Source: a candidate division TM6 bacterium RIFCSPHIGHO2_12_FULL_36_22 (GTDB lineage: Bacteria > Babelota > Babeliae > Babelales > UBA12409). From it: a stretch of 64,000 bases of DNA. Of this stretch, positions 16,168 through 62,184 are shown in pieces. Under the pieces are notes generated by a model that saw only the letters and a program-made list of their open reading frames with translations, was not told the origin of the DNA and made no database searches. Positions within the stretch are counted from its first letter, which is position 1. Each line of letters begins with the position of its first letter. The translations under genes and the position numbers were made by a program. The stretch covers positions 30,624-94,623 of the forward strand of contig METK01000008.1 in NCBI GenBank assembly GCA_001771315.1. The letters run 5' to 3'.

Positions 16168-17046
16168 TCATACTGGTTGCAAAAATCGAGACCAACGTAC
16201 CCTGCTCCAAAAATCAATAGGATGGCGCAATAAGTCGAAAACAATCCAGGATTGGTTGGTATCAAAAGACCATAATCTCAATAAAATTTTTCCATGTATA
16301 AATTTCTCTTTTAATGGTCCCCAACTACGAGAATCATGGCTTCCACGGCGGTTATCCCCCATTGCCCAATACTCATCCGGCCCCAGCTTAACTTCTTGGG
16401 TATCTAAAATACGACCTCCTTCAGAATATGGTGCTGCGGATGGCTTGAGATCTTCTTCTCCAAATCTCTTTGCAAACATATTACCATACTTGATTTCTCG
16501 TTCATTAACCCTATAAAATGGCTGATCTTTGTACGAATAACTCGGATCATATGACTTCCATGTCAGTGGAGAACGTGATGCTTCTGGATCATAAACAGCA
16601 ATTAAAGGGTACTTATTAAGATAAGGTTCATCAAGTTTTGTACCATTGCGATATATTACCGGCTTGCCTTCTTCTAGAGTCAATTTTATTGTATCACCCG
16701 GAACACCAATTACACGTTTAGTATAATTAGTTGGGCCCCATACATATCGTTGAAAATATTCCATTAATTTGTTATTTGAATACGGATAATTTGGATCATT
16801 AAATGTAATAATATCTCCATGTTTTGGTTTTTTAAACCATACAGACAATTTGTCTGCAAAAAAACCTTCCCCAACTAACATCGTGGTTTCCATTGATCCA
16901 GTTGGCACTTGATACAAACCATAAAACCATGTTCGTACAATAAAAACTAATGGCAAAATTATGATTGCACTTTCAATCCATGATGCAAGCGTAGACTTAT
17001 TCGGTCGCTTTAACCATATGCGTAATTTTCGAACATGAGAAGTCAT
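16168..17046 (-). CDS. lepB: signal peptidase I
   Basis: 292 aa. N-terminal TM, Ser box VPTGSMETTM, Lys box YTKRVIGVPGD, box E GDNRRGSHDSRSWG. Confidence 0.9.
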   Translation of the reverse strand: MTSHVRKLRIWLKRPNKSTLASWIESAIIILPLVFIVRTWFYGLYQVPTGSMETTMLVGEGFFADKLSVWFKKPKHGDIITFNDPNYPYSNNKLMEYFQRYVWGPTNYTKRVIGVPGDTIKLTLEEGKPVIYRNGTKLDEPYLNKYPLIAVYDPEASRSPLTWKSYDPSYSYKDQPFYRVNEREIKYGNMFAKRFGEEDLKPSAAPYSEGGRILDTQEVKLGPDEYWAMGDNRRGSHDSRSWGPLKEKFIHGKILLRLWSFDTNQSWIVFDLLRHPIDFWSRVRWSRFLQPV

Positions 17047-17128
17047 AATCGTAAAATCCTTTTATAATCAATAAAATAATTATTGATAGTGTATTATAAA
17101 AAATCATAAATTAATAGCCGTTACAGCA

Positions 17129-17564
17129 CTGACTGCAAGAAGCGAGACTACCGGACACGACTCCAAAAGTCGATTGGATGGCGTAATAAGTCAAATATAA
17201 TCCATGACTGATTAGTATCAAAAGACCACATTTTTCCGTGTAAAAACTTCTCTTTCAATGGCCCCCAGCTACGAGAGTCATGGCTTCCACGGCGGTTATC
17301 TCCCATCACCCAATATTCATCCGACCTCAGCTTAACTTCTTGGGTATCTAAAATACAACCTCCTTCAGAATATGGTGCTGCTGGCAACTTGAGATCTTCT
17401 TCTCCAAATCTCTTTGCAAACATATTACCATACTTGATTTCTCGTTCATTAACCCTATAAAATGGCTGGTCTTTGTACGAATAGCTCGGATCATATGACT
17501 TCCATGTCAGTGGAGAACGTGATGCTTCTGGATTATAAACTGCAATTAGAGGGTACTTATTAAG
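17129..17564 (-). pseudogene. lepB 3' fragment created by tandem duplication of 16173..16620
   Basis: The DNA aligns by eye along its whole length with the 3' part of lepB. Long exact runs include GAGATCTTCTTCTCCAAATCTCTTTGCAAACATATTACCATACTTGATTTCTCGTTCATTAACCCTATAAAATGGCTG. It encodes only the region from LNKYPLIAVY.. to ..FWSRVR. The TM helix, the Ser box and the Lys box are missing, there is an in-frame TAA just upstream, a 12-nt deletion (HGKILLRLWSF becomes HGKMWSF) and an early stop. Confidence 0.8.
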
Positions 17565-27349: not shown

Positions 27350-29278
27350 TTATTTTAAAATAGAGCCATTTACCATTGGTTTATGCGGCGTAATATAGGA
27401 TAGATTGCCATTGCCGTCATCGGCACATAGCATCATGCCCTGAGATTCCATACCCATCATCTTACGTGGTTTAAGATTAACAACAAAAACACCTTGTTTA
27501 TTTACAAGATCTTCAGGCTGGTAAAATTTCTTAATCCCTGCAAAAATTTGGCGAATACCCTTATCTCCACAGTTGACCAGCATTTTTAAAAGCTTATCTG
27601 AACCCTCAACTGGTTCAACTGATTCAATCGTTCCTACAACAAGTTGTACTTTAATAAAATCTTTAATATCGATGGTATCTGAACTGACTACTTCTTCTTT
27701 CTTTTCAATAATTTTTTCTTCTGACACTTTTGTGCTTTCAATTTTAGTAAACAATACTGGTACTTGTTTCAATTCAAATGTTTTATCCCAATTTTCTAAG
27801 CCCTTAATCACATCACCATTCAACTCAAATTGAGAGTCGATAGCATCAAGCAATGTTTCCATCTTACTTGGCATCACTGGCCAATAGATAGTACCAATTG
27901 TGCGTAGCGCATGACATGTCGCAGCAAGAACTTGCATAAAAGCTTCATTATCAGACTTAGCAAGCTTCCATGGTTCTTGGGCATGAAAATATGCGTTAGT
28001 TCTTGCAACAAAGCGCTTTACTTCTGCATAAGCCATATGCAATGAATATTCTTGAAGATACATGGCAACATCAGCAAGCATTGTTTTATTTGCTTGTTGT
28101 AGTTCTAATGCAGCATGTGACCACTTTGCTGGTGGAACAATAGTTTTTACATTGTTGAGCTGTGCAAGCATAGTCATTCGATTAAGAAGATTGCCTATCT
28201 CATTTGCAAGATCTGAAGTAATACGTTGTTCAAGATCCTCAATACTAAATGGTGAATCTTGAGTTACAGCCATCTGTGTTGTCAAAAAATAACGAACTGC
28301 ATCGGGACCATATTCTTTGTACAAAAATTCTGGATCCATTACATTGCCTAAAGACTTAGACATCTTTTGATCGCCAACCTTAATCCAACCATGAACTAAT
28401 AAATGCTTTGGCATTGATAAATCAGACGCCATTAAAAATGCTGGCCAATAAACCGCATGAAAGCGTACAATATCTTTCCCCATTACTTGGACATTAGCCG
28501 GCCACCATTTGGCAAATTGATCTTTTTTATCTTCTTGAAGATAGCCTATAGCTGTAATATAGTTATTCAGAGCATCTGCCCAAACATACGTAACATGTTT
28601 AGCATCACCTGGAAATGGAATACCCCACTTCACTGTTGTTCGAGAAATACAAAGATCTTTCAGTCCTGATTCTACGAAGCTAATAACTTCATTCATCCGT
28701 TCTTTTGGCAAGATAAATTCTGGATTATTTTTATAAAAATCCAACAGTTTATTCTGATATGCAGAAAGCTTAAAGAAATAACATTCTTCTTCAATATAAT
28801 GTGTTGATCTATTACAACTTGGACATGCTGGTCCAGATTGATTTGTATCTGTCGGTGCTCCCTGAGCTTCTTTATCGGACAAAAACGTTTCACATGGCGT
28901 ACAATACCAACCATTATAGCTGGACTTGTACACATCACCTTTATCAATCAACTGCTGCAACCATTGCTGTACTGCTTTAACATGGTACTCATCAGTTGTA
29001 CGAATAAAATGTGAATAATCTATTTCAAACTGCTTCCATGTTTCTTTGTAAGCACTGATAAAACTATCCGTAAATTCCTTTGGAGTTTTACCAGCTTTTT
29101 GCGCTGCAGCTGCAATTTTTTGACCATGCTCATCGGTACCCGTCAAAAAAAATGTTTCTTTTCCTTGCAACTTTTCCCAACGATTGAGCACATCAGCAAG
29201 AACCGTTGTATAGAGTGTACCCAGATGCGGCTTGGCTGTTACATAATAAATTGGCGTAGTAATGTAAAATGTATTCAC
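27350..29278 (-). CDS. metG: methionyl-tRNA synthetase with C-terminal tRNA-binding domain
   Basis: 642 aa, GTG start. HIGH-type AKPHLGTLY, zinc knuckles CTPC/CPSC, KMSKS (QKMSKSLGN), C-terminal Trbp111/EMAP-like domain (VGTIESVEPVEGSDKLLKMLVNCGD). Confidence 0.95.
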   Translation of the reverse strand: MNTFYITTPIYYVTAKPHLGTLYTTVLADVLNRWEKLQGKETFFLTGTDEHGQKIAAAAQKAGKTPKEFTDSFISAYKETWKQFEIDYSHFIRTTDEYHVKAVQQWLQQLIDKGDVYKSSYNGWYCTPCETFLSDKEAQGAPTDTNQSGPACPSCNRSTHYIEEECYFFKLSAYQNKLLDFYKNNPEFILPKERMNEVISFVESGLKDLCISRTTVKWGIPFPGDAKHVTYVWADALNNYITAIGYLQEDKKDQFAKWWPANVQVMGKDIVRFHAVYWPAFLMASDLSMPKHLLVHGWIKVGDQKMSKSLGNVMDPEFLYKEYGPDAVRYFLTTQMAVTQDSPFSIEDLEQRITSDLANEIGNLLNRMTMLAQLNNVKTIVPPAKWSHAALELQQANKTMLADVAMYLQEYSLHMAYAEVKRFVARTNAYFHAQEPWKLAKSDNEAFMQVLAATCHALRTIGTIYWPVMPSKMETLLDAIDSQFELNGDVIKGLENWDKTFELKQVPVLFTKIESTKVSEEKIIEKKEEVVSSDTIDIKDFIKVQLVVGTIESVEPVEGSDKLLKMLVNCGDKGIRQIFAGIKKFYQPEDLVNKQGVFVVNLKPRKMMGMESQGMMLCADDGNGNLSYITPHKPMVNGSILK

Positions 29279-29349
29279 AAAATTCCTAATCTGAAAACAA
29301 AATTTTTAAGATCTTTATCTAATAGTCTACCGCGAATAACGAGATTGGT

Positions 29350-29397
29350 GAACTACTCGCCCCAAAGGAGCGAGAATGCGCAAACTTTTTAGTTCAA
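29350..29397 (+). repeat. 48-bp palindromic intergenic repeat, copy 2
   Basis: GAACTACTCGCCCCAAAGGAGCGAGAATGCGCAAACTTTTTAGTTCAA, in the divergent metG/symporter intergenic region. Confidence 0.85.
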
Positions 29398-29545: not shown

Positions 29546-29733
29546 GAAGGTGTAGAATCAATTATATGAGAGGATGTCCATGAATAATTTCAATTTCTTA
29601 TCCAGCAGTATGCTATCACTATTCATTTCTAGGCTCCCTCATCTTCATCATCACTCCAACTAAAGGCTTTATCGACCAGCCTTGATGGTCTTTTTTGTTG
29701 TATATTTAAGTTTTAAGTTATCAGGAGTTTTTG

Positions 29734-31119
29734 ATGAATATTTATTTTATTTCCATTTTTTCAATTTTAACCATTATTTATTTGTATCTTGGCTATATTG
29801 CTTCCAAACGTATAAGTACACTTAAAGACTATTTTTTAGCCGGCAGAGATCTTGGATTTTTTGCTTTGGTATCTACTTTAATTGCCACTCAATTAGGTAG
29901 CGGAACTCTACTAGGGATTGCCCAAAAATCATATGAAGTTGGATATTATGGCATCCTATATGCTCTTGGCATGAGTATTGGTTTCATTATCCTCAGTCTT
30001 GGACTTGCATCAAGAATGCAGGCTCTTGATGTAGCAACTACGGCAGAGCTTTTTGAAACACGATATAATAGTGTAACTTTGAGAAAAATTGCCTCAATTT
30101 TATCCATTATTACATTATGCGGAATTCTTATTGGTCAGATTGTCGCCTCTCGAGAATTTATTGTTGGTATCTTTCAGTCTCAGTCTCTAGGCACAGAGAT
30201 TATGTTCCTACTATTCTGGATCTTTATTATTACCTATACCATTCTAGGTGGTTTGAAAGCAGTTGTTATCACAGATGTATTCCAACTCTTTTATATCATT
30301 GTAGTATTTACTGGAATTTTTGTTTATGCCCTTTGGCAAGAACCAGCAAGCTTTTTTAAGGTTTCTAATCTTTTAGGCACCCAAAAACAATTTAATATAT
30401 CATATTATGAGCTTATGACTTTTTTACCCACCTTAATTGCACCAGCATTATTTAGTCTTATTGAACAAGATCTTGCTCAACGCTTCTTTTCTGCACGTAC
30501 CAAAATAATTGCAACAAGCTCAGCCATTGTTTCCAGTATCTTCATGATTGCTTTTGCAATTATTCCTATTTATTTTGGCATGCAAGCAAAACTGCTTAAC
30601 TTAATCATTCCAGCAGGAAGCAACCCACTCATACCAGGGTTGCAATACTATGCCAATAACTTTGTTTTTGCACTGCTAATATGCGGCCTTATTGCAGCTA
30701 TTACTTCAACAGCAGATTCTTTGCTTTGTGCTATAAGCTCCAACGTTGCACAAGATTTCAAATTCAGTTTTCTTGGAAACAAACAATCAATTCAGCGGTC
30801 ACAATGGATCACCTTGTTTGTCGGAATAAGCATGCTTACCCTCTCCTATTTCATTAATGCAGGGATCATTGATATCATTATCAGCAGCTATAGCATCTCT
30901 ATTAGTACCCTCTTTGTGCCACTCATTATCTGCTATTTTAAAAAGAATGTTTGTAGACAAGCCGCATGGGCCAGTGTAATTATAGGTGCCATTTCCCAAA
31001 TTCTTTTTTGGTTGTACCCAGTATTTCTTGCTGACCTCTATATTATTGGTATCGCAACATTGGCATTCATATTGACCAGTTATACCTGTAAAAAGCTTAA
31101 AACCGGTAGTTATAATTGA
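29734..31119 (+). CDS. sodium:solute symporter family transporter (second SSF paralog)
   Basis: About 461 aa polytopic protein. YFLAGRDLGFFALVSTLIATQLGSGTLLG is an SSF-type N-terminal region. ATG at 29734 with AGGAG 6 nt upstream; the track start at 29731 is TTG. Confidence 0.75.
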   Translation: MNIYFISIFSILTIIYLYLGYIASKRISTLKDYFLAGRDLGFFALVSTLIATQLGSGTLLGIAQKSYEVGYYGILYALGMSIGFIILSLGLASRMQALDVATTAELFETRYNSVTLRKIASILSIITLCGILIGQIVASREFIVGIFQSQSLGTEIMFLLFWIFIITYTILGGLKAVVITDVFQLFYIIVVFTGIFVYALWQEPASFFKVSNLLGTQKQFNISYYELMTFLPTLIAPALFSLIEQDLAQRFFSARTKIIATSSAIVSSIFMIAFAIIPIYFGMQAKLLNLIIPAGSNPLIPGLQYYANNFVFALLICGLIAAITSTADSLLCAISSNVAQDFKFSFLGNKQSIQRSQWITLFVGISMLTLSYFINAGIIDIIISSYSISISTLFVPLIICYFKKNVCRQAAWASVIIGAISQILFWLYPVFLADLYIIGIATLAFILTSYTCKKLKTGSYN

Positions 31120-46910: not shown

Positions 46911-46983
46911 CCAAATATACTCGGTAATTGATAGTTAATCTGTTTATTGATCCAGTATATCAAAATGGTAATTATCTTCTAGC

Positions 46984-47031
46984 GAACTACTCACACCTAA
47001 AGGAGCGAGAATGTGCGAGTTTTTCATTCAA
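46984..47031 (+). repeat. 48-bp palindromic intergenic repeat, copy 3
   Basis: GAACTACTCACACCTAAAGGAGCGAGAATGTGCGAGTTTTTCATTCAA. Its 3' arm overlaps the last codons and the stop of ORF 47024..47302. Confidence 0.8.
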
Positions 47032-47302
47032 TAACACGAAATATCCCCCTAAAATCCTTAACTTGTAAATAAGGTTCTACTTTGAGGTCATCAGGCTTAC
47101 ATCTACCAGCACCAAAATAAAGCAAATCGATAAACTGATCGATCGCATCGGCAGCACCATTGGCAACAATGGTTACATTCTTTGGGTCATTAATAAATGC
47201 CATCCCTTCAATACCTGACTGACCCGCACTTTCCTGAATGTACGTTTTCAGGCTCACGTTCTGTAATGCTATAGAAAGCATTATTTGTACGCACTGCTTC
47301 AT
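47024..47302 (-). CDS. small acylphosphatase-like-fold protein (motif-degenerate)
   Basis: 92 aa. GIEGMAFINDPKNVTIVANGAADAIDQFIDLL ... FRVIE resembles the acylphosphatase-like topology, but the V-x-G-x-VQGV-x-FR phosphate loop is absent (LSIALQNVSLKTY). Confidence 0.4.
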   Translation of the reverse strand: MKQCVQIMLSIALQNVSLKTYIQESAGQSGIEGMAFINDPKNVTIVANGAADAIDQFIDLLYFGAGRCKPDDLKVEPYLQVKDFRGIFRVIE

Positions 47303-52875: not shown

Positions 52876-52921
52876 TCAGCTCGCCCTAAAGGAGCGAGAA
52901 TGCGCGAGCTTTTTCGTTCAA
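52876..52921 (+). repeat. 48-bp palindromic intergenic repeat, copy 4 (5' arm degenerate)
   Basis: CAGCTCGCCCTAAAGGAGCGAGAATGCGCGAGCTTTTTCGTTCAA. Confidence 0.75.
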
Positions 52922-52993: not shown

Positions 52994-53050
52994 GTATCTA
53001 TAAGTGTAAAATTCGTATAACGCATAAACTCGTAAAGTAGTTGATTTTTA

Positions 53051-53260
53051 ATGAATAAAGTAACAAACGTAAAAGTAGTTGTTCACAACCATGTTGATCG
53101 TGCGCTCAAGCAATTGAAAAAGAAAATTGAACGTGAAGGTGTCGTTCGTGATATGAAACGTGGTGTTTATTTTGAACCTCCTACACAAAAACGACGTAAG
53201 CGCCTTATTCGCGCTATCAAACAAAATATGATTCTTATGGCTGGCCAGGGTCAACTATAA
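53051..53260 (+). CDS. rpsU: 30S ribosomal protein S21
   Basis: 69 aa. VKVVVHNHVDRALKQLKKKIEREGVVRDMKRGVYFEPPTQKRRKR is the S21 pattern. Confidence 0.9.
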   Translation: MNKVTNVKVVVHNHVDRALKQLKKKIEREGVVRDMKRGVYFEPPTQKRRKRLIRAIKQNMILMAGQGQL

Positions 53261-53264
53261 AATT

Positions 53265-53630
53265 ATGCGTTCGACAGTACAAGATATCAAACGAAGACAA
53301 AAAGAGTCTTTGTTATATAGAGAAATATCCAAACTCTTTCTTGAAGTTGCATTAGATAATCCTGGTTTTCAATCTTTATTTATTAATAAGGTTGTATTAT
53401 CACCAGACAAGGGTTTATGTACTGTTTATTTTTATTCCCCTAAAGGCATTGATTTTTTCAAAACACAGCTTGAAGCATTAAAATTGTTTAAGCCATCTTT
53501 GCGGAAAGCCTTATCTCAAACAATCAATTCTCGTCGTGTACCACAAATTGTATTTGCTTTTGATAGTCAATTAGAAAAGCAAGAACATATTGAACAGCTT
53601 TTGGATCAAATCAAACAAGAAAATGACTAA
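53265..53630 (+). CDS. rbfA: ribosome-binding factor A
   Basis: 121 aa. RRQKESLLYREISKLFLEV...VVLSPDKGLCTVYF is the RbfA KH-like pattern. Confidence 0.8.
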   Translation: MRSTVQDIKRRQKESLLYREISKLFLEVALDNPGFQSLFINKVVLSPDKGLCTVYFYSPKGIDFFKTQLEALKLFKPSLRKALSQTINSRRVPQIVFAFDSQLEKQEHIEQLLDQIKQEND

Positions 53631-57515: not shown

Positions 57516-58478
57516 ATGACACTAGGCTCATTTTTTCATTATGGTAGCATTGCTGGTACTATTGCCTGCAGCGCTTTAGGCATAAGTATCGGCCTAAGTT
57601 ACATAGCCAAAGGCGCTATAGATGCTCTCTATACTCAACCTTCCGCACATAAAGAAATTTCAAAAATATCAATTTTAGCAATGGCACTTACTGAAACTGG
57701 TGGGGTCATTGGTTTAACGGTTTCTCTCATGCTATTTATTACCACCCTCAAGCTAGATAATACCCTCCTTTATCCCGGCCTTGCTCGATTTGGAATATTT
57801 TTTACAACCGGTTTAGTATCACTTTTTGTAGGTATTGTATCTGCGCTTCCAGCTCGACAAGCTTGCTTGTCTGTAGCTCGACAACCTTTTTTTAGTACAA
57901 AAATTATGAATCTTTTACTTATTACCATGTCCATTGTGCAAACACCCATTATCTTCGGCTTTCTTGCAGCTGTCATGATAAATTCTCAAGCCAATACAGC
58001 TGAATCCATTGGTCAAGCACTAGCAATTTTAAGTGCAGGCGTATGCCTTGGAATCGGGTCTATTGGTCCTGCATATGGGCAAAGTATTTATGCAGCACAA
58101 GCATGTGAAACACTCGGCAATAATAGAGATACATATCGAGGAATTTTAACTTTTTCATTAATCAGTCAGGCAATGATTGAGTCTCCAATAATTTTTGCAC
58201 TCTTAATTACCTTAGTTATTCTTGGAACTACATCAAATTTAATGACCCCTATACAAGCCGTAGTAACTACAGTTGCTGGATTTTGTGTTGGTATTAATAA
58301 TATTGCTACCGGTATAAGTTCAGGACGTACCGCAGCTGCTGCAAGCAAGCAAATAACCCATAATTTATCGAGTTATACCGCCATCACACGTACCAGTCTT
58401 ATTGCCCAAGGATTAATTGATACATTTGCAATTTATGGTTTGCTCATTGGATTACTCCTGCTATTCTTAGGAAAATAA
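57516..58478 (+). CDS. atpE: F-type ATPase c subunit, four fused hairpins (8 TM) in one 320-aa polypeptide
   Basis: There are four units of about 80 aa, each with a Gly-rich helix, a polar loop and a carrier helix. Loops: YTQPSAH, ARQPFFS, GNNRDTY, THNLSSY. Carrier positions: ALTE60TGG, SIVQ142TPI, MIE222SPI, LID302TFA, spaced 82/80/80 residues apart. Confidence 0.75.
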   Translation: MTLGSFFHYGSIAGTIACSALGISIGLSYIAKGAIDALYTQPSAHKEISKISILAMALTETGGVIGLTVSLMLFITTLKLDNTLLYPGLARFGIFFTTGLVSLFVGIVSALPARQACLSVARQPFFSTKIMNLLLITMSIVQTPIIFGFLAAVMINSQANTAESIGQALAILSAGVCLGIGSIGPAYGQSIYAAQACETLGNNRDTYRGILTFSLISQAMIESPIIFALLITLVILGTTSNLMTPIQAVVTTVAGFCVGINNIATGISSGRTAAAASKQITHNLSSYTAITRTSLIAQGLIDTFAIYGLLIGLLLLFLGK

Positions 58479-59715: not shown

Positions 59716-60627
59716 GTGAAATATGACTCACTTATCAAGGCAATAGGCAATACTCCCATCGTTAAGCTACCTTTGAAAGGTAAGGCTACTATCTATGCAA
59801 AACTAGAATATCTTAATCCAGGGGGAAGTGTTAAAGATCGCTCTGCTCTTTATATGATTGAGGAAGCAGAACGTCGTGGTGATCTCAAGCCAGGGGGAAC
59901 TATAATTGACGCCTCCTCCGGCAATCAAGGCATCGCTGTTGCTATGATCGGTGCTATCAAAGGCTATAAAGTCATTATTACAGTCGCTGAAAAAATCAGC
60001 GAAGAAAAGAAAAAAACAATGAAGGCCTATGGAGCTGAGGTCGTGGTTTGCCCGGTCACAATGCTCATCAATGATCCAGAAAACTATCATGCAAAGGCTG
60101 TAGAATTACATAAAACAACTCCTAACTCATTTATGCCTAACCAATATTTCAATATTGATAACCGTAATGCTCATTATCATTCCCTTGGTCCAGAAATTTG
60201 GCGACAAACGGAAGGTAAGATTACTCATTTCTTTGCTGGCGCTGGTACTGGAGGCACAATAAGCGGTGCTGGAGGCTATTTAAAAGAAAAAAATCCCAAT
60301 ATTAAGGTAATTGCCGTTGACTCCAATAACTCTTTTCGTGCAACAAAAGGTCACCCAAAGCCATATGCCGTTGAAGGCATGGGTGTCGATTTTGATTCTC
60401 CTGTATTAAACTATGAAACTATCGATGAATTTATCGAAGTAACCGATCAACAAGCTTTTGATATGCTAAAAATTTTGGCACGTAAGAATGGTTTGTTAGT
60501 TGGACCGAGTAGTGGCGCCGTTGCATATGCTGTCGCGTCGTACGAGCCAAAATTTAATGACGGTGACATGGCCGTTTTTATTTGTGGCGATTCTGGTCGT
60601 GCATATTTATCTAAAGATTTTTATTAA
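59716..60627 (+). CDS. cysK: cysteine synthase / cystathionine beta-synthase family PLP enzyme
   Basis: 303 aa, GTG start. NPGGSVKDRSALYMI (PLP-Lys), ASSGNQGIAVA, GAGTGGTISG. Confidence 0.85.
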   Translation: MKYDSLIKAIGNTPIVKLPLKGKATIYAKLEYLNPGGSVKDRSALYMIEEAERRGDLKPGGTIIDASSGNQGIAVAMIGAIKGYKVIITVAEKISEEKKKTMKAYGAEVVVCPVTMLINDPENYHAKAVELHKTTPNSFMPNQYFNIDNRNAHYHSLGPEIWRQTEGKITHFFAGAGTGGTISGAGGYLKEKNPNIKVIAVDSNNSFRATKGHPKPYAVEGMGVDFDSPVLNYETIDEFIEVTDQQAFDMLKILARKNGLLVGPSSGAVAYAVASYEPKFNDGDMAVFICGDSGRAYLSKDFY

Positions 60628-60798
60628 ACTTGCTTATTTAAGCGTATCAATAAACTTTTGCAGAGTATCCGTTGCTAGACTATATGTATCTAATAGGTTC
60701 TGCACATCAGTTTTAGATGAAGAAGCCGTCAACGTCTGACTCATAATCTGGCTTTGAAGAGAAAGATAGGAATCCAAGAGTTTCTGACTTTGCTTCGT

Positions 60799-60847
60799 GA
60801 ACTACTCGCCCCTAAAGGAGCGAGAATGCGCGAGCTCTTTAGTTCAA
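60799..60847 (+). repeat. 48-bp palindromic intergenic repeat, copy 5 (best consensus copy)
   Basis: GAACTACTCGCCCCTAAAGGAGCGAGAATGCGCGAGCTCTTTAGTTCAA. Confidence 0.85.
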
Positions 60848-61019: not shown

Positions 61020-62045
61020 TTAAATTTCCAACAATTGTATTCTTTGTGAAGATAAAGAATCAAGAAACTGTTCAGGCTTGAACTGTTGTCCCATTTTATA
61101 GAGATGTAATTTTCTATCTTGCAGTTGAGCTTTATTCTCATTCCACCAAGCAAGTAAACGCTCTATCGGCTGTTCATAGTAGTCGATACCAAAAAAGAAG
61201 GTTCCCCAATGCATGGGTATAAAGTGTTTGGCATTGATCTCAATGAATGCCCTACCCGCCTGCTCAGGACTTAAATGAGCCTTTTCCATCCAGTTACGAG
61301 GCTCACATGGTCCGATTGGCATAAAAGCTACATCAATAATTGGAAACTCATTTGAAATTTCTTTAAAGTGCTTCCAATAAGCAGTATCACCCCCAAAATA
61401 GATCTTTTTGCCAGCAACATCGAGCATCCAACTACCCCATAAAGACTTATTTCGATCTAGAATGCCTCTCTGAGACCAATGGTAAGCTGGAAGGAAAGTA
61501 AAGTTAATATCGAGAAAACTCACATTTTTCCACCAATTGAATTCTGATACTAAATCTAGATTATAACCATATCGTCTAAACCAATCTTTATCACCATGCG
61601 GCACAAGAATATGTGCTTTTGGGTTATTTTTAACTACAGTTGCAAGACTTTTACGATCCATATGATCACGATGATTATGAGAAAGAAGGATATAATCAAT
61701 TGGAGGTAGCTGCTCGACTGTCAATCCTGGAGGCAAAATACGTGGAAATAAACAACTCGAATTTCCAAATATTGGATCAATAAGGATATTACATTGATTA
61801 ACTTGAATTAGAAAACTTGCATGTCCTATCCAAGTAATTGTAAGCTCTTGACTCCTTTTTGGTGGAGTAGATGATTTAACCCATTGTTGCTTATCATGTG
61901 GTTTTCGTGAATTATAGTTTTTTAGTAAGTGCAAAAGCATTAATACCGTATGACCAAAGACATTATCAAAAGTCTCTCCATGCTCATTGGCAAAGCGACG
62001 CCCATCATGATGGGGCATTAATTTATAAAATTTTTTTTTATCCAT
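61020..62045 (-). CDS. MBL-fold metallo-hydrolase (NAPE-PLD-like)
   Basis: HNHRDHMD (H-x-H-x-D-H) plus the downstream GGDTAY and PMHWGTF motifs. The likely start is the ATG at 62045 (MDKKKFYKL) and not the track start at 62117. Confidence 0.75.
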   Translation of the reverse strand: MDKKKFYKLMPHHDGRRFANEHGETFDNVFGHTVLMLLHLLKNYNSRKPHDKQQWVKSSTPPKRSQELTITWIGHASFLIQVNQCNILIDPIFGNSSCLFPRILPPGLTVEQLPPIDYILLSHNHRDHMDRKSLATVVKNNPKAHILVPHGDKDWFRRYGYNLDLVSEFNWWKNVSFLDINFTFLPAYHWSQRGILDRNKSLWGSWMLDVAGKKIYFGGDTAYWKHFKEISNEFPIIDVAFMPIGPCEPRNWMEKAHLSPEQAGRAFIEINAKHFIPMHWGTFFFGIDYYEQPIERLLAWWNENKAQLQDRKLHLYKMGQQFKPEQFLDSLSSQRIQLLEI

Positions 62046-62184
62046 AAAAATCACTTTTATAACTAATTTCCCCCATCCAGACAGAATGTCTTGGATAGGG
62101 GAAATGGAGGTTATCACGGTTAAAAGATCTTACCAATCTTTCTTAAATAAGAATATCTACTTTCCTTCAAGAAATCAAATTAGA

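Follow-up and report, generated by a model that had tools for sequence, protein, structure and literature searches.

The dispersed repeat found in the 64,000-nt stretch of DNA analyzed here (the window) very probably consists of gene-less, terminal-only, non-autonomous derivatives of an IS605-type insertion sequence of the IS200/IS605 family. The first-pass annotation had suggested a dispersed element of the REP/MITE type, and perhaps a mobile element in miniature. This reading was upheld by an empty site at the position orthologous to one copy and by the linkage of the repeat to tnpA and tnpB genes. The window lies within metagenome contig k141_11946 (ENA ERZ4903070; 124 kb), and its MetRS is 100% identical to a protein of 'candidate division TM6 bacterium RIFCSPHIGHO2_12_FULL_36_22', which makes the organism a Dependentiae/Babeliales member from groundwater. 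The G+C content of the window is 35% and its GC skew is negative over the whole length.

The 49-nt consensus of the repeat matched the window at 4801-4849 (-) and 60799-60847 (+), with one mismatch each, and gave no chance match in 100 dinucleotide-preserving shuffles. The copies at 29350-29397, 46984-47031 and 52876-52921 were also found, with a repeat finder and with an nhmmer profile built from the five copies. The five positions first given for the repeat were thus recovered by consensus matching, repeat finder and profile, and neither repeat finder nor profile revealed a sixth copy, be it in the window or in a further ~15 kb of its contig. None of the five copies lies inside a gene: all of them are intergenic or abut gene ends, just as had been described. 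Concerning the length of the repeat, earlier put at ~48 bp, its existence stands but the mobile unit measures 46 nt (45 nt in copies 2 and 3), running from the C after TTGAA to ...TAGTTCAC. The TTGAA is pre-existing target and lies outside the insert. Read on the top (tnpB-sense) strand, the TTGAA target is followed by CTAAAAAGCTCGCGCATT, an 18-nt left-end spacer with guide bases at its end, by CTCGCTCC TTTA GGGGCGAG, a subterminal hairpin with a T-G wobble, and by TAGTTCAC, an 8-nt right-end tail. The five copies are the following:

Copy 1: 4806..4851, top strand +; 46-nt terminal-only element; TTGAA at 4801-4805, hairpin at 4824-4843, right-end tail AAGTTCAC.
Copy 2: 29348..29392, top strand -; 45 nt, one loop base missing; TTGAA at 29393-29397 (read on the - strand), hairpin at 29356-29374.
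Copy 3: 46982..47026, top strand -; 45 nt, the most diverged of the five; TTGAA at 47027-47031, hairpin at 46990-47009.
Copy 4: 52880..52916, top strand -; 37 nt, truncated to the left-end spacer and a 7-bp hairpin; TTGAA at 52917-52921, hairpin at 52880-52898.
Copy 5 (the copy originally flagged): 60797..60842, top strand -; 46 nt; TTGAA at 60843-60847, hairpin at 60805-60824.

The gene surroundings of the copies are diverse. A distance of 2 nt separates the end of the copy 1 tail from the stop codon (4852-4854) of a convergent gene (4852-5310, -), and a separate canonical terminator is found nearby at 4755-4784. Copies 2 and 3 are located between divergent genes, those of copy 2 being metG (27350-29278, -) and a gene for an SSF transporter (29731-31119, +). 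An acylphosphatase-like gene (47024-47302, -; PF00708, 24.3 bits, cut-off 22.5) has as its TGA stop the first three bases of copy 3, where the consensus has CTA, and its last sense codon, GAA, lies within the TTGAA target of that copy. With the consensus CTA at this place, the gene would read through the entire insert; the TGA may have arisen by a later mutation, through which the gene, once it had received the insert, regained a short C-terminus. Copy 4, which is devoid of the 8-nt right-end tail, is ~130 nt upstream of rpsU-rbfA (53050-53630, +), and copy 5 is located between the convergent genes 59716-60627 (+, cysteine synthase-like) and 61020-62117 (-, metallo-hydrolase).

Other features of the window were recorded in passing. 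A 320-aa protein encoded at 57516-58478 (+), beside the gene of ATP synthase subunit a, gave four separate ATP-synt_C matches and looks like a fused multi-hairpin c-subunit, not the usual ~80-aa form. A signal peptidase I gene (16168-17046, -) is followed by a truncated second copy (17148-17423, -) of 91 aa that corresponds to the C-terminal part. The repeats involved (16172-16585 and 17128-17529) display 93% nucleotide identity over 300 nt and 79% over the adjacent 101 nt, which indicates a recent tandem partial duplication of the gene. A NurA-domain protein (PF09376, 2.2e-31) is encoded at 6283-7434 (-), with NifU-like and NUDIX genes nearby.

Orthologous intergenic regions of relatives had been pointed to as the place where an insertion would appear as presence versus absence, and such a difference was seen at the site of copy 2. 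Relatives with a MetRS 85% (L025-L027) or 75% (L028-L030) identical to that of the window keep the order SSF transporter/metG/topA, and in a profile search no copy of the repeat was found in L025-L030. The empty sites of these six relatives retain TTGAA, and in the window the insert is placed directly 3′ of TTGAA, with no target duplication. The empty site reads AATTTTGAA / TAAACTCCTTATTCGAGGTAGAC, versus AATTTTGAA / 45-nt element / CAATCTCGTTATTCGCGGTAGAC in the window, in a comparison that concerns one of the five sites and has a boundary ambiguous by one base; with longer flanks, L025 reads ...GCGACAATTTTGAA / TAAACTCCTTATTCGAGGTAGACTATTAG and the window ...GGAATAATTTTGAA / 45 nt / CAATCTCGTTATTCGCGGTAGACTATTAG. 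This junction was read straight from the sequences, as the diverged upstream flank was misplaced by MAFFT global alignment. Target-site duplications, which had been suggested as a further sign to look for, were absent, as were flanking direct repeats, from all five copies. Insertion 3′ of TTGAA without duplication is a hallmark of IS200/IS605 peel-and-paste transposition. The reading of an excision footprint was also considered and was rejected because IS200/IS605 excision is seamless (PMC3201880). As a side remark on the relatives used, L026 (GCA_002896335.2, MPMF02354559.1) and L027 (GCA_002998485.1, PVBE012050919.1) have contig numbers that run into the millions, and probably represent very large metagenome or eukaryotic-host assemblies with a Babeliales symbiont or contaminant.

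The occurrence of the repeat beyond the window was searched for with a degenerate 21-nt core. Among the GTDB species genomes, a set in which the source species is missing or masked, only two chance matches were obtained, both in high-GC genomes. In the JGI metagenomes, the core was found in seven contigs of assembly Ga0155577 and three of metagenome C687J35021, the other matches being due to chance in high-GC DNA. No further DNA common to these loci and the window was found, and the limits of the conserved block are sharp, with ...GTGAACTA at one side and TTCAA at the other. In L004, and in L021, which is identical to it, the repeat starts at the TAA stop of a 162-aa ORF with a full-length match to Pfam Y1_Tnp (PF01797, 4.7e-38) and a score of 131 bits on the NCBIfam model of the IS200/IS605 family transposase (cut-off 55). 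On the opposite strand, the 141 nt that precede this tnpA encode the N-terminus of TnpB (MLTGVSFRAYPNKEQ...WMGCAKFIWNAK), the translation of which, MLTGVSFRAYPNKEQGLTLSQWMGCAKFIWNAK, is 61% identical to the TnpB of L024; several contigs break within these 141 nt. The interpretation of this upstream repeat as the C-terminus of another gene (GKKRPLTF...) was rejected, as six-frame translation identified it as the tnpB N-terminus on the other strand.

A search for tnpA and tnpB in the window, and in the ~80 kb read of its contig, revealed neither gene, as expected of copies that are non-autonomous. L021 and the window stem from one ENA sample, agree in G+C content and carry the identical repeat, and they have no overlapping genes; the Ga0155577 loci have no orthologues in common with the window, the nearest being one 52%-identical, paralogue-like aminotransferase. 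Judging by sample, G+C content, repeat and the lack of overlapping genes, the tnpA-bearing contig may belong to the window's own genome. A chimeric N-terminal query for a resident tnpB and right end gave only non-identical, mostly truncated TnpB fragments. L007, L008 and L012 carry the same tnpB start and end sequence as L004 without tnpA, with a common 57-nt replacement, and they are located at different sites. Three tnpB-only copies sharing one internal deletion at different sites indicate that TnpA acts in trans in this lineage. In the related assembly there are also degenerate or half copies of the repeat (L004 3591-3625, 3799-3847 and 4745-4777; L007 9638-9677), adjoining an ankyrin-repeat gene and the 3′ end of dnaE, from which it follows that the element family decays in place.

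The identity of both ends was deduced from a comparison with full-length relatives. Those with a TnpA 66-71% identical have the layout of IS605, with tnpB and tnpA as divergent genes. After tnpA, they show a hairpin followed by ATTGCG...TTGTTCA(A) and, beyond the tnpB stop, GTGAACTA and a hairpin of the same type. The two ends of the relatives are thus the two halves of the window repeat, and therefore the latter is to be read as left-end spacer, one hairpin and right-end tail, with an assignment of the putative right end that rests on relatives having a TnpA 66-70% identical. Left-end and right-end hairpins are both present in L024, L033 and L036; the window copies retain one. Of the 17 distinct ends, 15 are preceded by TTGAA and two, those of L009 and L033, by ATGAA. 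The full-length relatives have the four bases GAAG 5′ of their right-end hairpin and TCAC as the terminus of that end. The solo copies have the left-end guide CATT only, without the GAAG of the right-end hairpin and, judging by the rules of IS608, the missing GAAG may render their right-end cleavage poor. In L024, two left-end-like segments are found in tandem after tnpA (2989-3160), the first one degenerate and the second intact, with a terminator-like hairpin in between, an arrangement suggestive of an end that is nested or has been duplicated.

The hairpin CTCGCCCC-TAAA-GGAGCGAG described at the outset, with one C/A mismatch, was found as such, and the mismatch on that strand (the reader's strand) corresponds to a G-T wobble on the opposite one. 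Folding of copy 5 gave -22.4 kcal/mol for the top strand versus -16 kcal/mol for the reader's strand, with z values of -3.35 versus -1.53. So, the check proposed earlier, folding of both strands, agreed with the hairpin but favored the strand opposite to the reader's consensus. Covariation was studied in 11 distinct hairpins, drawn from solo copies as well as from both left and right ends. On the top strand, 93% of the cells were paired, with double-sided changes in five of the eight pairs, and the observed covariation score was reached by none of 500 shuffles. Pairing amounted to 82/88 on the top strand versus 71/88 on the bottom strand. The left-end hairpins all reach 8/8 pairs on the top strand only, because the G-T wobble becomes a C/A mismatch on the other strand. 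This strand bias of pairing and folding indicates that it is the strand complementary to the reader's consensus that is functional. Concerning orientation with respect to replication, the top strand is on the G-rich strand in 9 of 11 solo copies (4 of the 5 in the window) and in 10 of 15 ends overall, GC skew being taken as a proxy for replication direction. This is a weak bias in the direction expected for the lagging-strand template, towards which the IS200/IS605 family is biased (PMC5027513).

With the boundaries and the active strand in hand, other properties first ascribed to the repeat can be reinterpreted. The outer arms GAACTA/TAGTTC are present in the sequence as reverse complements, but they are not true terminal inverted repeats. 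The apparent inverted repeat of 6-7 bp is formed by the flanking TTGAA plus two left-end bases, facing the right-end tail, and its target part was already there in the empty sites. Similarly, the embedded AAAGGAG-N5-ATG occurs in the five window copies, as had been reported, but it is incidental and varies in relatives: AAAGGAG is the hairpin loop plus the 3′ arm, and the guide bases 5′ of the hairpin foot contain the CAT to which the ATG is complementary. Among the five left ends of the relatives, four have ATT instead of ATG (L024, L031, L033 and L036), and four have an altered AGGAG (AGAAG in L023, L024 and L031; ATGGG in L036). The hairpin and the target and end motifs produce, as by-products, both the Shine-Dalgarno motif with its ATG and the apparent inverted repeat at the termini. 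In L021, the gene caller predicted a 52-aa ORF (691-849) that starts at the element ATG and extends into the sequence preceding an HI1420-like antitoxin gene. This prediction is probably an artefact of annotation, arising from the hairpin arm that resembles a Shine-Dalgarno sequence.

Three other explanations were weighed against the insertion-sequence derivatives. If the repeats were palindromes kept, as REP sequences are, by a domesticated single-copy REP-associated tyrosine transposase (RAYT) for host roles like mRNA stabilization or protein binding, one would understand their single hairpin, conserved flanking bases, intergenic location and frequency of about one per 13-16 kb, as well as their association with a Y1 HUH enzyme, all the more since REPs resemble the subterminal hairpins of IS200/IS605 (PMC3333891). 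This reading is nevertheless very unlikely. On the model of REP-associated tyrosine transposases (REP_Tyr_transpos, cut-off 80), the TnpA scored no more than 20 bits, against its 131 bits on the IS200/IS605 model; its gene has tnpB at one side and one left end at the other, in the layout of IS605, and is not flanked by inverted REPs; tnpB-only copies are multi-copy and break assemblies; and the copies decay freely. The possibility that the repeat is the conserved 5′ end of a family of small proteins or leader peptides (Shine-Dalgarno motif plus ATG, MRELFS...) has in its favor the good AAAGGAG-N5-ATG of the five window copies and the 52-aa prediction in L021, but it is almost negligible in view of the loss of each motif from four of the five left ends of relatives. 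The internal ATG opens ORFs of 7, 11, 16, 32 and 65 codons, which cease to resemble one another at the limit of the element, in agreement with the original description. No family match was obtained among the tested ORFs crossing the element, and the alternative of a paralogous protein family, raised at the same time, failed, as downstream sequence is not conserved past that limit.

A cis-regulatory host RNA spread by selection, be it a terminator, a 3′-end stabilizer or a riboswitch-like alternative fold, would be in agreement with the stable hairpin, with the closeness of copy 1 to a stop codon, with the position of copy 5 between convergent genes and with the CTTTTT run that, on the reader's strand, comes after a possible CTCGC/GCGAG pairing. 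It is, however, highly improbable. The terminator scanner flagged none of the elements, and copy 1 has its own terminator apart; two copies are between divergent genes and another one is upstream of rpsU, with an orientation independent of the flanking genes. For these reasons, transcript-end stabilization, one of the roles initially contemplated, is unsupported. Moreover, the strand with the wobble pair is set by the transposon and not by the neighbor genes, and the element is missing from the orthologous site in relatives. The search of Rfam, which had been advised, revealed no known family: there was no match in the window at the gathering threshold and, under relaxed thresholds, none at E<=1 around copy 5 and none at E<=0.1 on the insertion sequence ends of relatives.

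Taking the derivatives of an IS605-type insertion sequence as the preferred explanation, the full-length element would have one hairpin near either end, and in the miniature form everything between the two hairpins would be gone, leaving the left and right outer parts around a single hairpin. By analogy with IS608 and ISDra2, the hairpin would fold in the single-stranded DNA of the lagging-strand template, where a TnpA dimer would bind it; the bases 5′ of the hairpin foot would pair with the cleavage motifs; and the top strand would be excised as a circle and pasted 3′ of TTGAA.

Two origins can be envisaged for the 46-nt form. The mini-element, once collapsed, could have been amplified in trans, like a MITE that transposes itself; alternatively, full-length insertions could have collapsed in place repeatedly, losing what lay between their two hairpin repeats. 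On the side of amplification, many of the copies, although located at different sites, are near-identical, and some of them coincide with the consensus. The structure of the solo copies is exactly that predicted for a deletion between two palindrome repeats, but no site was found to be full-length in one genome and collapsed in another. On the side of repeated collapse, the spacer variants CTCTTT and CTTTTT each occur in gene-carrying and in solo copies, a distribution that hints at more than one origin. On balance the two possibilities have nearly equal weight, collapse in place being slightly the more probable one. The proposal that the single-hairpin form is an active substrate, excised and pasted by TnpA in trans in spite of its one hairpin and one set of guide bases, must be taken as tentative and is rather doubtful. 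If it were true, no smaller peel-and-paste transposon would be known from bacteria, and the element would be a living intermediate that connects IS200/IS605 elements with REP sequences.

As a finding, this is genuine but ordinary: a selfish-DNA remnant of a known sort in an uncultivated TM6/Dependentiae bacterium. No host function of the repeats is indicated, and they reveal no new mechanism. An unrecognized repeat can now be annotated as a mobile-element relic, and the target TTGAA, the end sequences and the active strand are now given for an IS605-type family of Dependentiae (TM6), a poorly studied phylum of intracellular bacteria. In practical terms, spurious small ORFs that start at the element ATG and a gene with an insert-derived stop codon are flagged, and likely assembly break points are marked. 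The wider interest is limited to the possible mobility of a 46-nt one-hairpin substrate: near-identical one-hairpin copies constitute a natural test of whether one subterminal hairpin is enough for mobility by TnpA, a question that bears on the origin of REPs.

Among known systems, the closest precedent is that of the terminal-only PATEs of Haloquadratum walsbyi, where IS605-type transposons and PATEs collapse into 52-bp terminal-only PATEs by deletion between near-terminal palindrome repeats of 19-22 bp (Dyall-Smith et al. 2011, PMC3119063). Examples are the core-deleted HqIRS46 and a 52-bp derivative of ISHwa23, and six strain-specific insertions of one family, known in the 52-bp form only, suggest that such elements may move (PMC3119063). 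PATEs are defined as too short to encode a protein, with an IS605-type palindrome and with neither inverted terminal repeats nor target duplication (PMC3119063). The 46-nt element agrees with this definition, both its boundaries being common to gene-carrying IS605-type copies. Like the PATEs of Haloquadratum, it is a gene-less sequence of ~50 bp made of fused IS605-type ends around one near-terminal palindrome, with no target duplication and with a short conserved target oligonucleotide at the 5′ side. Those PATEs occupy strain-specific sites and so are perhaps still mobile. They are, however, archaeal and of unrelated sequence, whereas the present host is a bacterium of the candidate phylum Dependentiae (TM6). 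The palindrome deletion was seen directly across Haloquadratum strains, while here we infer it, with the right end taken from relatives.

Likeness to IS605 and IS608 of Helicobacter pylori and to ISDra2 of Deinococcus radiodurans is found in the Y1 HUH TnpA accompanied by tnpB (divergent, as in IS605), in the subterminal imperfect hairpins on one strand and in the insertion 3′ of a 4-5-nt motif without duplication. ISDra2 has TTGAT as its target, which the TTGAA found here resembles. In IS608, the guide GAAT pairs with the TCAA end; the GAAG/TCAC of the relatives mirrors this arrangement by position, with a compensating C-G in the last one. The geometry is also similar: in IS608, 19 nt separate the left cleavage site from the left hairpin, on the 5′ side of the latter, and 10 nt separate the right site from the right hairpin, on its 3′ side (PMC3201880), and the distances here are 18 nt at the left and an 8-nt tail at the right, with the left cleavage site outside the element. 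Unlike those insertion sequences, the window copies are gene-less, with one hairpin, one set of guides and other end sequences. The gamma-proteobacterial REP/RAYT (TnpA-REP) system shares with them the single imperfect hairpins with a conserved flanking motif, dispersed and intergenic, and REPs are processed by a Y1 HUH enzyme related to the TnpA of IS200 (PMC3333891, PMC8266576). In contrast with that system, the TnpA considered here is by model scores an ordinary IS200/IS605 enzyme linked to tnpB, the window is free of BIME-like pairs and the copy number is modest. Finally, free-standing IS605 stem-loops have been reported on Borrelia plasmids (Delihas 2009, PMC2775950), and gene-less PATE-like elements in Geobacillus stearothermophilus (Meers et al. 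2023, PMC10055086). Like the window copies, these are IS605-end hairpins or end-only elements without transposase genes, some of them at the 3′ ends of genes, and their mobilization in trans is presumed. The Borrelia stem-loops are without adjoining end sequences, unlike the window copies, and the Geobacillus PATEs have separate left and right ends, often with omega-RNA, whereas here both outer segments are gathered around one hairpin.
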